From the NCBI GenBank assembly GCA_963809985.1, contig CAWELW010000002.1, positions 120,395 through 184,394 on the forward strand: a stretch of DNA of 64,000 bases, given 5' to 3'. Origin of the DNA: an uncultured Alphaproteobacteria bacterium. Lineage in GTDB: Bacteria; Pseudomonadota; Alphaproteobacteria; Rhizobiales; Beijerinckiaceae. A model generated the notes under the pieces. That model saw only the letters and a list, made by a program, of their open reading frames with translations. It was not told the DNA's origin and ran no database searches. Below, piece after piece: positions 1 through 54,153 of the stretch. The number at the start of each line of letters is the position of its first letter. Positions within the stretch are counted from its first letter, which is position 1. Position numbers and translations under genes: made by a program.

Positions 1-3006
<3,006 letters not shown>

Positions 3007-3291: not shown

Positions 3292-7560
<4,269 letters not shown>

Positions 7561-7615
7561 GGGCTAGGCTCTGCCTCGTCCGCTCGGCCCGCCCAGCGCG
7601 CGGGAACGAAAGAGC

Positions 7616-7641
7616 AAGGCCGCTTCCGAGCGGCCTTTTTT
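7616..7641 (+). terminator. Rho-independent terminator after rpoC
   Basis: GGCCGCT (7618-7624), loop TCCG, AGCGGCC (7629-7635), then TTTTTT (7636-7641). Lies 56 nt after the rpoC stop. Confidence 0.75.
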
Positions 7642-7906
7642 AGCACGAACGGCTGCTCATACTCCAATCGGGTGGGCGCTCCCTTCGATTGGGAACCTGT
7701 TTGAGCGGCATCGGCTGCGTTTTGGGCGCGGACGCCGTTGCCGGTCATCAGCCGAGCCACGGCTAGCTTCAGCTTTACTTGTTTGGACAGGTGGTTTAAC
7801 CCGGCTTCGGCCGCTCCCTGGCATCTCGATGAAGATTGCGTCTCCCGATGGTCCTGGAGAAAGTCTCTTTAAATGCGCCTCCGCCGGATTTTTGACGGAG
7901 GGAGGG

Positions 7907-7935
7907 TTGACGGCCGAGCCGCAGATCATTAAGTT
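7907..7935 (+). promoter_or_regulatory. Candidate sigma70-type promoter for the str operon
   Basis: TTGACG (7907-7912), 17-nt spacer, TAAGTT (7930-7935). Pattern match only. It would give a leader of about 400 nt before rpsL. Confidence 0.25.
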
Positions 7936-8339
7936 CCGCCGACTTTCGACAGGCGGTAGATTCATTTCTGTTCGGGACAACTCGTCCTGAAGCCATACGA
8001 ATCTAAACGCTGTCGGCCCCAGCGACTGCAATGTCACATCGGATCCAGGCTACGGCCGCGGATCTTCTGGAGGCAAGAACTCGGCGTTGCCGGGGTCCTC
8101 TGCATTTTTCCAGCGCCGGAAGCCCTCGGGCCGAAGGCGCTGATTTGTTTGCGTCGAACGCTGGGACCGCGACCCGCACACCGCAAAGACCGGGCGGTTT
8201 GAGAGGTGAGGATTTCGATGCGCTCGCTTCCGTCGGCGTCTTATCAGGCCTGCCGATCGGAGGGCACGGCAGGATGCAAGACTGGCGGCATGTCGAAATT
8301 GGCGTGTTACCGGACGACCGAAGTTATGAAGGGCAAAAC

Positions 8340-49835: not shown

Positions 49836-50501
49836 TCAAGCCAGCGCGATACGCAGAGCTTCGCGACCCTTCGGCGTATCGACGACCTGCATTATCACGG
49901 GCTGCCCTTCCGCCAAGTGCTGAACGCCGGATGGGCCAAGGATCGAAATGTGCACGAAGACGTCTTTGCCGCCGTCGTTCGACTGCACGAAACCGAACCC
50001 TTTGCTGTCATCGAACCATTTCACGGTCCCCGTCACTTCGACAGCGGTTGAAGGATCGGGATGCCGCCGCGGCGCGGCGGCGCCGCCACTGCGTGGAGAG
50101 TTGAATCTTTGTGGAGCGCGTTCGGCTGCGCCGGCGGTGTCGACTTCGAGCACCCGCGTAACCTGTGCGCCCTTTGCCCCGCTCCCCACGTAGACTTTCA
50201 GCTTGGCGCCAGGCGGGACAGTCTCGTAACCAGCTGATTGGAGCGCGCCGATATGTAGGAAAGCGTCGCCAGTGCCGTTGCTCAGTTCAACGAAACCAAA
50301 ACCTTTGTCACCCTTGAACCACTTGACGATTGCATCGACAGGTGTACCGGTGACCGGCGTCGACATATCGGGACCTCCAAAACCAGCGCCACCAAATGAA
50401 GGGCGGGCGGGCCCTCTCGGCCGCGGCATGTCGTAGGGGGAGGGGCCGTCATCGTCGAATCCACGCTTCTTCGGGCCCCGAAAATCTTTACCTTTGCTCA
50501 T
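49836..50501 (-). CDS. Cold-shock-domain protein with two CSDs and a Gly/Pro/Arg-rich N-terminus
   Basis: 221 aa. Two KGFGFV RNP1 motifs (VKWFKGDKGFGFVEL and VKWFDDSKGFGFVQS). Confidence 0.92.
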   Translation of the reverse strand: MSKGKDFRGPKKRGFDDDGPSPYDMPRPRGPARPSFGGAGFGGPDMSTPVTGTPVDAIVKWFKGDKGFGFVELSNGTGDAFLHIGALQSAGYETVPPGAKLKVYVGSGAKGAQVTRVLEVDTAGAAERAPQRFNSPRSGGAAAPRRHPDPSTAVEVTGTVKWFDDSKGFGFVQSNDGGKDVFVHISILGPSGVQHLAEGQPVIMQVVDTPKGREALRIALA

Positions 50502-51182
50502 GATCTGCCTGCTTGTATCCCACCTGCACAGCTAGCTGCAACTTCCAGCGAACCTCTCGTTCCGAACATTCTGCCGACGTGAACGAGTAGCACACATGCG
50601 TCGAAGCCGGCCACCCGTAGGCGCCGGCCAGGATCATGTCGAGGGTATTTGGTCTGAATGTCGGAAGTCCCGCGTTTGAATAATTGATAGCAGAAGATGC
50701 GGTACCTTGGCTACCATTTTGCATGCCATTGGAACGGTTACGTTCGAAAAAGTTATGCTCCAACTTGCACCGAATTTTGGTGGGTTGAGAGAACTCCTCG
50801 TCAAATCAAAGGTTTGCCCGCGCATTCGGTCGCACAGTTCGTCTTCGTGATCGGCAACGGGCGGAATTCATTGATCTTAATCCGGCGCGACCGGATTTGT
50901 ACCAAGACGCCGACTGAAATAATAGCCTGTGGTGACGCCGCAGTCGGCGCCAAGCCATTTCCGTGCGTGCCGGTTTACCCGTCGGCTCAACCTCGGCAGA
51001 TTGCGCCGAAAACCGGCTCGCGCCAAAGCGACGCTCGTCGGTTCGCTCCAGATGGTCCCGCGGGCGAGAACATGGAAAGCTCCGAGCCCAAGAGGCGGTA
51101 CGGGCGATCAAGAACCTCTGCCCAAGTAGCAGGGGGCTTTTGCTGCTCCCGCTGAAAATTCAATGGCCGATCTGCCTTCAGG

Positions 51183-51226
51183 CCCGAGTGTATGGCGCAA
51201 GTTACCCGAGTGTATGGCGCAAGTTA
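51183..51226. repeat. Perfect 22-bp tandem duplication
   Basis: CCCGAGTGTATGGCGCAAGTTA at 51183-51204, repeated exactly at 51205-51226. Confidence 0.95.
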
Positions 51227-51600
51227 CGAGAGAGGAGCTGAATGTGGCTCGGCTCGATTACATGACGGAAGATCTGGCCAAGAGCGATGGAACGGACAAA
51301 GCAAAGAAGATTATGAACGCCTTCAAAAAAATTCCAGCTTGCTATTGAATTGTCCCGAGACGATCGGCATCGCGCAAAGCTTGTCTTGGTTGAGGCGCCT
51401 CTGTTCCGACGAACGCCAGCCGGCCCGGGAGCACCCATTCCTTTAAGTCTGCGATTCGCATAATCAATATTATGGAACCAAAATCGGCGATGTTACACTT
51501 CCCATACCAAGCTACTTGCGCTAGGATCTGAGTCGCATGGAGGCGCGCTATGAACATGCCTCAGCGGCCTATGTCATCCCATACCGAAGATCGGCCTTCG

Positions 51601-51774
51601 TCATGATTGCTTTGGCGTCTTCGGCTTGGGAGGCGTTTCAGTGATCTTCTTGAATGCCTTGTCGAAATCCTTCGGATCTTCGGACGCATCCACTTCCCGT
51701 GCCATATCGACGAAGCGCTTGTGGCGCTCGGAATCTGTGAGTCCGGATTGTTTATTTGGCCGTCTCGTCGCCAT
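51601..51774 (-). CDS. Cargo ORF 3: 57-aa basic protein. It falls below the ORF-track length cut-off and was found by hand translation.
   Basis: MATRRPNKQSGLTDSERHKRFVDMAREVDASEDPKDFDKAFKKITETPPKPKTPKQS. The ATG lies 2 nt after the stop of the 254-aa ORF (TGAtaATG). Confidence 0.6.
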   Translation of the reverse strand: MATRRPNKQSGLTDSERHKRFVDMAREVDASEDPKDFDKAFKKITETPPKPKTPKQS

Positions 51775-51776
51775 TA

Positions 51777-52541
51777 TCAAGCTGCCAATCTGAATGTGTC
51801 GTCGGAATCGTTATCTTGAAAAACGCGACGCGCAGCGCGACGAAGCAATGCCTGATCGCTGGGCTCGAATTTGCCTTCTAAGACCGCGCCCAGGAAAGGA
51901 GGATTTTCGAGACGTGAAACATCATCCAACTTGGAGTAAGCAAAGGCTATCGAGACCGGCGATGGGCTTACGCGGGAAAAAAATCCAGCTCTCTCACTAG
52001 GCAGATTGACCTTAGCATCGAACGGCCACACTTTTGTAGAAGCTCCGGCAATCTCGACATCCTTCGTGACGTTCCGCTCACCGAATATACGCGCGAGTCG
52101 CAAAGACAATTCTTCTTTGCGACGTATCTCAAAACGCTCCGCAAATTTATCACAAGTACGAAGAAGTGTGATAGCAACAGCGTTCGCCACAATAGACGTG
52201 AGCCCTACCAATCTATCTGCCGGGGCCTGAGCTTCAAATATCTCCCAATCATTGAAGGTAAGTTGCAATTCAGCCGCAACTTTCCGAGCTTCGCGACGGC
52301 AAATGTCATCGGCGCCCATCATCTCGGCTTCACGCATTGCGGCGCCGTCATCAGTTATTGTAAAGGTATTGGGTCCGCCCAACAGTCGGATGCTTATCAA
52401 CCGCCCGCTTGGGAATGCGATCGGGGTTTGGATTGAGACATCATTCCCATGGACCTTAGCATAGGCGAGCCCGCGCGCGACCCGCTCCGCAATTTCACGG
52501 AGAGCCTCTATGTCATTCCTTAGAATAAGCTGGCTGACCAT
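51777..52541 (-). CDS. Cargo ORF 2: 254-aa hypothetical protein, possibly DUF1828/DUF1829-like
   Basis: Long ORF inside the IS. Its start overlaps the upstream ORF by 22 nt. ...VSIQTPIAFPSGRLISIRLLGGPNTFTITDDGAAMREAEMMG... resembles the DUF1828 pattern as I recall it. Confidence 0.75.
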   Translation of the reverse strand: MVSQLILRNDIEALREIAERVARGLAYAKVHGNDVSIQTPIAFPSGRLISIRLLGGPNTFTITDDGAAMREAEMMGADDICRREARKVAAELQLTFNDWEIFEAQAPADRLVGLTSIVANAVAITLLRTCDKFAERFEIRRKEELSLRLARIFGERNVTKDVEIAGASTKVWPFDAKVNLPSERAGFFSRVSPSPVSIAFAYSKLDDVSRLENPPFLGAVLEGKFEPSDQALLRRAARRVFQDNDSDDTFRLAA

Positions 52542-53053
52542 GGGGGACTCAGAATCTTTCCGTCTGTGATGATAACATTAAGTTGCGAGCACACAAAGCG
52601 GACAAAAGCATCAAAATCATGCGGTTCTGGGTCAACTGGAACACAAATTGGTAAATTCTTAGCCTGCATCGGTTTGAGCCCAAGTTTCGAATTGTGCCCA
52701 AATTCATGAATGCCGGTCTCAATGGATAATCCCCGCAATTCTCTCGGACCACATTGGTTTAGATGCAGATGCGCAGGCCTCCAATCCATTCTCCATGCAA
52801 CATAATCACGTCCTTGTATGGTCACTATAAGGGAGGCGCTAATATCGCGATCAGGAGTCCCGCGAACAGCGCGCCACGTAATGCGAAGCGTCGCCAGCGT
52901 GAACGGAGGCCCATCCGTCGTTTGTACAATCTCAACCGGAAGAACAAGAATCAAACAATTGCCATTTCCAGCGGTCCAGCCAGCCGGTTCATTTGCGAGC
53001 TTTTCCGCCGTCACGGCGACGCGCATTTCTTCTATAATTTGCGCCTCGTCCAT
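52520..53053 (-). CDS. Cargo ORF 1: 177-aa hypothetical protein with an HEFGH (HEXXH) motif
   Basis: ATG 53053 lies 12 nt after the transposase stop, preceded by AAGGG. HEFGH occupies residues 116-120 (52694-52708). No family recognised. Confidence 0.75.
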   Translation of the reverse strand: MDEAQIIEEMRVAVTAEKLANEPAGWTAGNGNCLILVLPVEIVQTTDGPPFTLATLRITWRAVRGTPDRDISASLIVTIQGRDYVAWRMDWRPAHLHLNQCGPRELRGLSIETGIHEFGHNSKLGLKPMQAKNLPICVPVDPEPHDFDAFVRFVCSQLNVIITDGKILSPPWSASLF

Positions 53054-53065
53054 GGGGCGCCCTTT

Positions 53066-53995
53066 TTATTGCGCCGTCATTCGACTTTCGTGATTAGGCT
53101 GTCGATATGTCAGCCTCTTGCCCTTAGCGCCTTGCAATGCGATTTCCGCACGCTTGGTATCGTCAATACCGAGCTTCGCACGGTTATTTTGGCGGAAATC
53201 GAATTCGGCCAAATACCGATCAAGATGTTTTTCGTCGACGTGCTGATAAATGCCGATCAAACCGCGTTTGAAGATCGAAAAGAAACCCTCAAGAGTATTG
53301 GTGTGAACGTCGCCGCGCGCCCATTCGTACTTCGAATGATCGACACTTTCGTGCTGGCCTGCGTTGACCATGTTCTTGTAATGCTGTGCACCGTCGGTCA
53401 CAAGGCGGCTTTCGAAGTCCAAATGCTCATACAATGCACCTCGGACATTGCGATGGTCGAGGACCATGGAACGGATTGCGCCACCGCGTTCGACTAGGCT
53501 CAGGACTTGAACATTGGGCCGCTCTGGATTGGGCCTGCGAGACTTGTGCGAGCGGCTGAGAACGGTTTCGTCGGCCTCGACGGTCTTGCCTTGGCCACCG
53601 AGGGGCTCGATCGAACCGCGAGCCGGTGCCATTGCCGCGCGAATGCGGTGGCCGAGGAACCACGCGGTTTTCATGCTGCAATTGAGCATCCGCTGGATTT
53701 GGCGAGCGGAAATTCCTTTCTTGCTGGCGCACATCAAATGGATGACCTGCAACCAGAGATGCAAAGCCAGATGCGAGGACTCGAAAATGGTTCCCATCCG
53801 CACGGTGAAAGGCTTTTTGCAGGCGTAGCATTTGCAGAGACCCGGCCGAGTGGTCTTGCCGTTCAATCGGCCGACCTTTGCGGTTTCCCCGCAATGCGGA
53901 CAAACCGGGCCATTCGGCCAAAGATTCTCTTCGACATAGGCGAAAGCGGCTTCTTCGGTTTGGAAATGAGGGGCGGAAAGAACGGACTTGGCCAT
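53066..53995 (-). CDS. IS1595-family (ISXO2-like) transposase
   Basis: 309 aa. N-terminal zinc ribbon CPHCG...CKCYACKKPF. Then the DDE domain (VEADETV..., TDGAQHYK, HTNTLEGFFSIFKRG). Confidence 0.9.
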   Translation of the reverse strand: MAKSVLSAPHFQTEEAAFAYVEENLWPNGPVCPHCGETAKVGRLNGKTTRPGLCKCYACKKPFTVRMGTIFESSHLALHLWLQVIHLMCASKKGISARQIQRMLNCSMKTAWFLGHRIRAAMAPARGSIEPLGGQGKTVEADETVLSRSHKSRRPNPERPNVQVLSLVERGGAIRSMVLDHRNVRGALYEHLDFESRLVTDGAQHYKNMVNAGQHESVDHSKYEWARGDVHTNTLEGFFSIFKRGLIGIYQHVDEKHLDRYLAEFDFRQNNRAKLGIDDTKRAEIALQGAKGKRLTYRQPNHESRMTAQ

Positions 53996-54153
53996 GGGAA
54001 AAGCTCCTATGACCAGGATTCTATATCAAGAGGTCAGGTATGTCAAGTGTAACATCGCCCCAAAATCCCTGGCCAAGCCAAGACAGATGTCATATTCAGT
54101 CCCAGCTAATCAGGCCGCGTTGCGCGCAAACCGGCACCGCGCCGAGGCGGCCT

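Follow-up and report, generated by a model that had tools for sequence, protein, structure and literature searches.

Within a 64,000-nucleotide stretch of DNA from an uncultured alphaproteobacterium of the Beijerinckiaceae (the whole of which is called the window here), an intergenic chromosomal site is occupied by what is, with high confidence, an intact IS1595-family transporter insertion sequence (tIS) of 2574 bp. The element holds four closely packed genes, all on the minus strand: the transposase gene (tnp), followed by three genes designated A, B and C. Its features, by window position, are as follows.

51478–51485, no strand: target-site duplication (TSD), cargo-side copy, exact 8 bp CCAAAATC, abutting the tip of the terminal inverted repeat (IR)
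51486–51508, plus strand: cargo-side terminal IR, GGCGATGTTACACTTCCCATACC, of an IR family common to the related elements L021, L025, L027 and L009 (listed below)
51509–51600, minus strand: non-coding tail of 92 nt from the C stop codon to the IR, free of open reading frames (ORFs) and of Rfam matches; extra genes lie here in the related elements L003 and L021
51601–51774, minus strand: gene C, 57 aa from an ATG (59 aa from an upstream TTG), a small backbone protein
51777–52541, minus strand: gene B, 254 aa, cargo, with a 2 nt gap to C
52520–53053, minus strand: gene A, 177 aa, cargo, with a 22 nt overlap with B
53066–53995, minus strand: tnp, full-length IS1595-family DDE transposase, 309 aa, with a 12 nt gap to A
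54018–54046, minus strand: site resembling a sigma-70 promoter (11/12; TTGACA and TAGAAT, 17 nt apart); the -35 hexamer falls within the IR, and the site reads into tnp-A-B-C
54037–54059, minus strand: transposase-side terminal IR, GGCGATGTTACACTTGACATACC on the minus strand
54060–54067, no strand: TSD, transposase-side copy, CCAAAATC

The first 15 bp of the element (GGCGATGTTACACTT, 51486–51500) are matched at every position by the inverted sequence at 54045–54059 (15/15), and the match extends to 21/23 across 51486–51508 and 54037–54059. Exact copies of this 15-mer within the 64 kb window are limited to this pair. The 8 bp flanking sequence is identical at both IR tips, for which the chance probability at fixed positions is 1.5e-5. 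These ends, the duplication, the IR-to-IR length and the gene spacing had been proposed in the original prediction, which was made from the letters alone, and all were confirmed at the same coordinates. The element was also correctly described there as richer in AT than its surroundings: its GC content is 52.8% (49.6% for A and 51.9% for B), whereas the 5 kb flanks have 59.3 and 62.3% and the whole window has 59.8%. Given the perfect duplication, a recent single transposition is plausible. Other perfect inverted pairs of 15–18 nt, 1.4–4.7 kb apart, are present in the window (8883/13609, 31738/33127 and 42042/44472); the last falls within tatB and serS coding sequence, and the others are also in housekeeping genes. 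These pairs do not mark the ends of elements and have arisen by chance in GC-rich DNA; only the 51486/54045 pair brackets a transposase gene and has a duplication on its outer sides.

A promoter-like site is found at the same position in two related elements, L021 and L025 (TTGACA, ~17 nt, TAGGAT), and this conserved placement within the IR suggests that tnp-A-B-C is most likely a single operon driven from the IR promoter. A weaker, outward-facing promoter-like site (GTAACA, 16 nt spacer, CATAAT; 9/12) lies on the minus strand at 51469–51496, across the cargo-side IR and its junction and directed toward the region of a neighbouring cold-shock gene; it may be a chance occurrence. Rfam and tRNA scans of the window returned no matches.

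The transposase was assigned to the IS1595 family, as had been proposed, by its matches to NCBIfam NF033547 (E = 2.5e-49, 168 bits against a cutoff of 75) and Pfam PF12762 (DDE_Tnp_IS1595, E = 2.8e-24) and by an N-terminal zinc ribbon, PF12760 (Zn_ribbon_IS1595, E = 1.3e-12). It is full length relative to homologues of ~50% identity, and across five members of its clade the zinc-ribbon cysteines (CxxC...CxxC) are invariant, as are D142, D201, E236-x6-K243 and E264-x3-R268. A DDE transposase, a zinc ribbon, short IRs and an 8 bp duplication, the features by which IS1595 membership is recognized, are thus all present. Members of ISfinder's ISNwi1 subgroup that carry passenger genes are 1.75–4.75 kb long, with ends of the form ggnnatTAT and a DDEK+ER4 catalytic signature. 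The window element resembles these passenger forms in its single zinc-ribbon DDE transposase, its short IRs starting GG(C/G/T)GAT, its 8 bp duplication and its extra genes within the IRs, and its 2574 bp fall inside that size range. From the DDEK+ER4 signature and the GGnGAT(TAT) ends it may be ISNwi1-like, which is put forward as a lead. The ISPna2 subgroup (GGCnnTG ends) was dropped as an alternative after the DDEK+ER4 signature had been considered.

Insertion sequences (ISs) that carry passengers are an established category, the transporter ISs, which are reported from no families other than IS1595 and IS66 (TnCentral preprint). One transposase, IRs, a duplication and the passengers A and B between the IRs are all found here, and the vehicle is a further member of the known IS1595 tIS category. 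It differs from described tISs in its A-B cargo and in the gene layout set out below, neither of which is described in the searchable literature. The original prediction had taken ordinary family members to be about 1 kb long with a transposase only; this understates the family, in which the tIS is a named kind and intact close relatives of the window element, sharing its IR family and likewise bounded by 8 bp duplications, measure 1869, 2604 and 3155 bp.

The identical element was found in the source metagenome-assembled genome and in several metagenomes. Wherever the contig was long enough to judge, it occupied one and the same site, downstream of metG, tatD and a metallo-beta-lactamase (MBL)-fold gene and upstream of the cold-shock gene. 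No second copy was present in the 64 kb window or at another site in those contigs with the identical element that were long enough to judge. The empty site expected in relatives reads ...GGAACCAAAATCCCTGG... (ATTATGGAACCAAAATCCCTGGCCAAG); a look-up of the flanking MBL-fold protein, made toward such a site, returned no record with exactly matching sequence, and the empty site was not found. On the cargo side, ~1 kb (50500–51480) with short, unconvincing ORFs only separates the element from the cold-shock gene (49836–50501, minus strand), which encodes a protein with two cold-shock domains and is called as either 221 or 176 aa. The single copy in the window and the constant MBL-fold/cold-shock site would fit an immobile fossil, whose extra genes are resident chromosomal genes caught between IS remnants. 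Against this stand the full-length transposase with all conserved catalytic positions, the perfect IR tips, the exact 8 bp duplication, a GC content ~7 points under that of the flanks, and the occurrence in other taxa of diverged four-gene units, which lie at unrelated sites and have 8 bp duplications of their own. We regard a fossil as extremely improbable.

The related elements that inform the anatomy of the tIS are listed here by locus.

L003–L006, metagenome: ~70% nucleotide identity, tnp-A-B-C order kept; the contigs end within tnp; an additional ORF of 90 aa precedes the far end, AAGTATAATATCGCC
L001, metagenome: A-B-C; an IS5-like element has cut tnp short
L021, Brevundimonas balnearis: tnp-A-B-C and one further gene; 3155 bp; IR GGCGTATATGCATTTGACAAACC; duplication TTTTCTTT
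L009, metagenome: A-B and a frameshifted tnp facing each other in a region resembling an integrative and conjugative element (ICE); another IS directly upstream of A
L025, Roseomonas marmotae p1318-1: X (266 aa), PIN/VapC, C; 2604 bp; duplication TATCTTTA
L026, Methylobacterium oryzae pMOC1: X (288 aa), PIN/VapC, C
L027, Pseudosulfitobacter plasmids: tnp and C without a cassette; 1869 bp; 24 nt IRs, 96%
L028, Mesorhizobium plasmid: degraded tnp, then a 162 aa gene, then C

For detection of C, a local hidden Markov model (HMM) profile was built from six C sequences, tblastn with proteins of 57–62 aa being too weak at database scale. With this profile, C was found after tnp in the window element, L001, L003 and L021, which carry A-B, in L025 and L026, which carry X-PIN, and in L027 and L028, where the matches were weakest (E = 4.5e-11 and 7.8e-9, respectively). 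The profile gave no match in the transposase-linked locus L009, nor downstream of A-B at any locus without a transposase. The C proteins have in common an RF·E·AR···DE····F motif and a Pro/Lys-rich tail. Because C follows tnp whatever the slot between them contains and is absent from transposase-less A-B loci, it belongs to the backbone and not to the cargo. The original prediction of a three-gene cargo was right that the extra genes lie inside the IRs; the cargo itself comprises two genes. If any of the extra genes serves transposition, C is a better candidate than A-B. The anatomy IR-promoter-tnp-[slot]-C-(optional extras)-IR, together with this division into backbone and cassette, is held with the same high confidence as the identity of the element. 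A tnp-[slot]-C arrangement with exchangeable conflict cassettes is not described in the searchable literature; ISfinder or TnPedia may hold one.

The closest annotated transposases are those of the Roseomonas and Methylobacterium plasmid elements in RefSeq (~50% identity to that of the window). These sister elements further resemble the window element in their IR family, their size (~2.6 kb), their 8 bp duplication and the placement of a two-gene cassette between tnp and a homologous small ORF C. The cassette, however, is unrelated to A-B. Its second gene matches PIN in Pfam (E = 5e-6 and 3e-12), and hhalign comparisons of B with X and of A with PIN each gave a probability of <1%, so that homology within either pair of partners was rejected. 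The transposase of the A-B element of B. balnearis is 63% identical to that of the X-PIN element of M. oryzae and 62% identical to that of the cassette-less L027, against 51% to that of the window. Cassette type thus does not track the transposase tree, from which it follows that cassettes have been gained or exchanged more than once.

Several further features of these elements were recorded. In L003, the additional ORF of 90 aa that separates C from the IR (1784–2056, minus strand) has an N terminus, MISYDLRKKDEF..., that appears Cas2/VapD-like by eye and has no Pfam match. The further gene of L021 (6359–7012, minus strand) lies inside the IRs on the opposite strand and encodes a 217 aa protein with a hydrophobic N terminus and a weak match to a tRNA_anti-like oligonucleotide/oligosaccharide-binding fold (E = 8.6e-4). 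The rearranged element in L009 spans 4048–7938, with A-B and a 52 aa ORF convergent with the frameshifted IS1595 transposase; the IS directly upstream of A is of the DDE_5 type, with 28 nt IRs at 4048–4075 and 5448–5475, and genes for a type IV coupling protein and a MobA relaxase are found in the surroundings. In L001, an IS5/IS427-like element (8–1071; a DUF4096 ORF and a frameshifted DDE ORF) replaces most of tnp, of which the last ~80 codons remain. The PIN-cassette tIS of L025 (2693–5700) appears by eye to lie within an IS30-family transposase gene, with the helix-turn-helix (HTH) N terminus upstream and '...RQIAAQLGRSPSTISREIGRNGG' downstream. Two independent tIS copies are near rpmB, the gene for ribosomal protein L28 (L001, 3888–4187; L021, 3568–3864). 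The recovered target duplications are all AT-rich 8-mers (TTTTCTTT, TATCTTTA, an A-rich one and CCAAAATC), and the L021 target comes directly after a terminator-like T-run; the tIS may prefer AT-rich intergenic or terminator DNA.

The A-B pair was then followed outside the IS1595 elements. A precedes B at all loci examined, usually with the 22 nt overlap. Among distant pairs the overlap is 4 or 25 nt, and in L023 the genes are separated by an 11 nt gap. The arrangement is conserved down to ~25–30% identity. At least eight A-B loci are without an IS1595 transposase. Among these, A-B lies between an S24 repressor and the integrase in an Alsobacter prophage (L022), at the end of a Mu-like Rhizobium prophage adjoining an S24 repressor (L023), and directly beside an S24 repressor and a Cro-like HTH gene in a plasmid prophage of Pseudochrobactrum (L024); in all three, the pair is co-oriented with the S24/CI-like repressor. 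It also occurs in two phage-like metagenomic contigs with terminase genes and at plain chromosomal sites. The original prediction had named the presence of the three ORFs at this locus in relatives, without IRs or a transposase, as evidence against cargo status. A-B was indeed found without IRs or transposase, but only at other loci (prophages and chromosomal islets), which supports the view of a captured module and does not refute cargo status. A-B is an autonomous, horizontally mobile two-gene module.

These loci also bear on whether A and B might be accessory or regulatory proteins of transposition, acting in target selection, immunity or transposase control, rather than cargo. Such a role would be in keeping with the apparent co-transcription and translational coupling of A-B with the transposase, with the tnp-A-B-C order kept in four diverged elements (the window element, L003, L001 and L021), and with the nuclease-like, possibly DNA-binding fold predicted for B. 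It is hard to reconcile with the A-B loci that lack an IS1595 transposase, tyrosine-integrase and Mu-like prophages among them, or with sister elements that are cassette-less or carry the PIN cassette and still have clean duplications, and cassette type departs from the transposase tree. We consider an accessory role very improbable.

The module is rare. Close B loci numbered two in 185,579 GTDB species-representative genomes, with two more in a JGI metagenome scan, and a tblastn search of plasmids yielded one B relative and no A match. A description of the A-B cargo was not found in the searchable literature. None of the three proteins A, B and C of the window gave a significant match to Pfam, NCBIfam, PADLOC or PHROG, which agrees with the earlier statement that no known resistance, toxin-antitoxin (TA) or defence gene was recognizable in the cargo.

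For B, 39 close relatives were collected, and an AlphaFold2 (AF2) model of usable quality was obtained (predicted local distance difference test (pLDDT) score, 81.7). The model comprises a beta-rich, DUF1828-like N-terminal domain, a 45-residue helix and a C-terminal domain of beta-beta-beta-alpha-beta-alpha-beta-alpha order that resembles restriction endonucleases. A Foldseek search of BFVD with it gave a full-length match to a 255 aa phage 'DUF1828 domain-containing protein' (E = 6e-13). At the profile level, DUF1828 was matched weakly by 11 of 29 B members (E = 0.12 for window B) and phrog_1960 by 25 of the 29 (best E = 7e-5). The B protein of the Brevundimonas element (L021_B) matched the PADLOC candidate model PDC-M24B over ~170 residues (E = 3e-7); weaker matches were seen for 5 of 29 close members, and that of window B was weak (E = 0.042). 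B resembles the DUF1828(/DUF1829) proteins, phrog_1960 and PDC-M24B in its length of ~250 aa and its overall two-domain fold. It differs in that window B falls below every curated threshold and has no DUF1829 match, and in that A has no PADLOC counterpart. DUF1829 has been implicated in a validated defence system, DS-6/HipAD (PMC13092281). No literature was found on PDC-M24 or on the function of DUF1828.

Weak fold matches of the B model were to Card1, Can2, Cdn1, NucS, MspJI and Cas4 in the PDB and to restriction endonucleases in BFVD. In the AF2 model, the C-terminal topology (helix 108–153; strands 158–165, 171–179 and 185–191; helix 195–209; strand 216–221) is compatible with a PD-(D/E)xK core, whose order is alpha-beta-beta-beta-alpha-beta. 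The residues that survive deep divergence are an acidic residue at 175 and, in the following helix, the invariant K204 and D207.

The C terminus of B ends in -AA in 36 of the 39 proteins and in all six translated from loci; in 17 it is -LAA, as in window B. A C-terminal -LAA or -AA is the ClpX recognition determinant of ssrA tags, those of alphaproteobacteria included. The -AA tail of B is therefore possibly a built-in degron that would make the protein labile to ClpXP.

For A, a word-indexed search gave 10 close relatives, none with a family annotation; an exhaustive profile search of 1.84 billion proteins gave a family of 241 representative clusters, nearly all of 160–180 aa. One reason for the low first count is that gene callers often skip the A gene: it is uncalled in L009 and L010, and tblastn places an A upstream of every B. 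The 90% cluster, moreover, was represented by a fragment of 67 aa that came from an error-prone contig, and for this reason window A was hidden in the first homology search. The family has no Pfam, PADLOC or PDB relative. Its conserved core consists of K18, W26, R88-x-D-W-R-P93, H97-x-N99, H116-x-F118, N121, N133-L-P135 and P170-x-W172. Two assignments of A were tried and rejected. A zinc protease, suggested by HEFGH (HExxH), does not fit the alignment, in which only H116 is invariant, position 117 is E, G, D or Q, and E, V or C stands in place of the second His; PDB phmmer matches to tandem RNase A constructs (E >= 0.006 over 40 residues) were attributed to chance. Foldseek with the AF2 model of A gave only matches of E > 0.1, which are uninformative at a pLDDT of 54. 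A beta-beta-alpha, His-Me-finger-like arrangement around H97, H116 and N121 might be imagined from the model, and is put forward as a weak idea.

A TA or abortive-infection role for A-B is suggested by the slot that it shares with PIN/VapC cassettes, by its place in prophage immunity regions, by its mobility and foreign composition, by the apparent proteolytic lability of B and by the TA precedent in the Tn3 family. The match of L021_B to PDC-M24B and that of the B fold to a DUF1828 phage protein are further hints of a conflict system. We judge the chance that A-B functions as a conflict system to be about evenly balanced. Unrelated cassettes occupy the slot between tnp and C in this clade, A-B being the one in this element; in the mechanism envisaged, A-B would be co-transcribed with the transposase from the IR promoter and would pay for carriage of the element by defence, addiction or both. 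B, with its DUF1828-like domain, a nuclease-fold domain without the canonical (D/E)xK motif and an ssrA-like -AA end, would act as a labile sensor or neutralizer, and A, with its His/Asn/Asp/Trp core, as the effector. This division of roles is doubtful, and we think it unlikely to hold in this form. The combined reading, a tIS backbone carrying A-B as a TA-like or abortive-infection/defence cassette with roles of this kind, stands at even balance. A more far-reaching proposal, in which the tIS clade is a small cassette platform whose fixed backbone (IR promoter, transposase and C) has a slot that repeatedly captures and exchanges conflict modules, PIN-toxin pairs and A-B among them, with A-B a new TA/abortive-infection system in which the ssrA-like -AA end keeps B unstable and loss of B or a block in its synthesis frees the A effector, is offered tentatively and lies on the unlikely side.

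Two precedents bear on the reading of A-B as a conflict cassette. In the lambda prophage, rexA-rexB is an exclusion/defence pair located beside the repressor, and a location beside, and co-oriented with, the repressor is generally that of lysogen-expressed exclusion and defence genes. A-B in the three prophages is likewise a two-gene unit adjacent to and co-oriented with a CI-like repressor; the likeness is one of position and orientation. In the Tn3 family, TA pairs of several unrelated types, PIN among them, occur at one position within transposition modules, and there is evidence that they have been acquired and exchanged (Lima-Mendez et al. 2020, PMC7157771). Those pairs are similar to A-B in that a small conflict-type pair adjoins the transposition genes, apart from ordinary passengers. 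The differences are that the tIS belongs to another transposon family with another mechanism, that it has no resolvase or res site, and that A-B is not a recognized TA family. No literature was found on an IS1595 tIS with TA-like cargo.

Measured against the type II TA systems, A-B consists of two adjacent genes that usually overlap, as expected of such pairs; known toxin and antitoxin or DNA-binding families were not detected in it with Pfam, NCBIfam or PADLOC. A pure addiction pair, which acts by post-segregational killing or by stabilizing the transposon, benefits the element rather than the host and has no part in phage defence, would account for the slot shared with a PIN/VapC cassette, the tight overlap, the possible degron of B, the Tn3-family precedent and the occurrence of A-B in an ICE-like region and a plasmid prophage as well as on a tIS. 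Both proteins are, however, large for a classical type II system and no DNA-binding antitoxin domain is recognizable; the position beside prophage repressors is typical of exclusion or defence, and one B relative matches a model of a defence candidate. Pure addiction appears unlikely to us, and it overlaps heavily with the conflict-cassette reading, since many TA systems also defend.

The prophage contexts beside the immunity region, and the structural place of B in a phage family (phrog_1960 and the DUF1828 phage protein), could also be explained if A-B were a pair that benefits the phage, in counter-defence or lysogenic conversion, and was acquired secondarily by the IS, with no TA logic. 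Relatives of A-B were absent, however, from 50,697 GenBank phage records and from IMG/VR, and the pair persists at non-phage chromosomal sites and on the tIS. A self-contained conflict module accounts better for its obligate coupling and for the parallel with the PIN cassette. A phage-beneficial pair is accordingly rated as quite improbable.

Several observations weigh against A-B as a TA-like or defence cassette. For neither the A nor the B family has a function been established by experiment in any member, and A and B of the window are without significant PADLOC, Pfam or NCBIfam matches. PDC-M24 is a candidate system only, to which the significant match comes from one distant member of the B family, and the A family has no match in PADLOC. 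The PDB fold matches of B are all at E >= 3e-3 with template modelling scores of ~0.3, and a canonical PD-(D/E)xK nuclease was rejected because strand 3 carries no conserved (D/E)xK. The reading of -AA as a degron draws on general knowledge of ClpX, and the AF2 model of A is unreliable at its pLDDT of 54, which makes statements on its fold speculative. The association with phages comes from a handful of prophage-like contexts, and the absence from phage records and IMG/VR noted above counts here too. Finally, expression of A-B within the tIS would depend on a transposase promoter, and such promoters are usually kept low.

ISs are usually viewed as bare transposase genes, and this clade shows the smallest of transposons carrying conflict-type cassettes in a defined slot. 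The swapping of cassettes between lineages extends to IS elements the argument made for the TA pairs of the Tn3 family. What goes beyond the known kind of tIS is the tnp-[slot]-C organization and an A-B pair with an unannotated A family. A-B is a compact, rare and uncharacterized module, under-counted in databases because the A gene is often missed, and its genomic setting is like that of defence and TA systems: it is found beside prophage repressors, it is mobile and tightly coupled, and one of its components has a family member homologous to a defence candidate. Should the function of A-B turn out to be mundane, the element would still be a well-delimited new tIS with a corrected anatomy.

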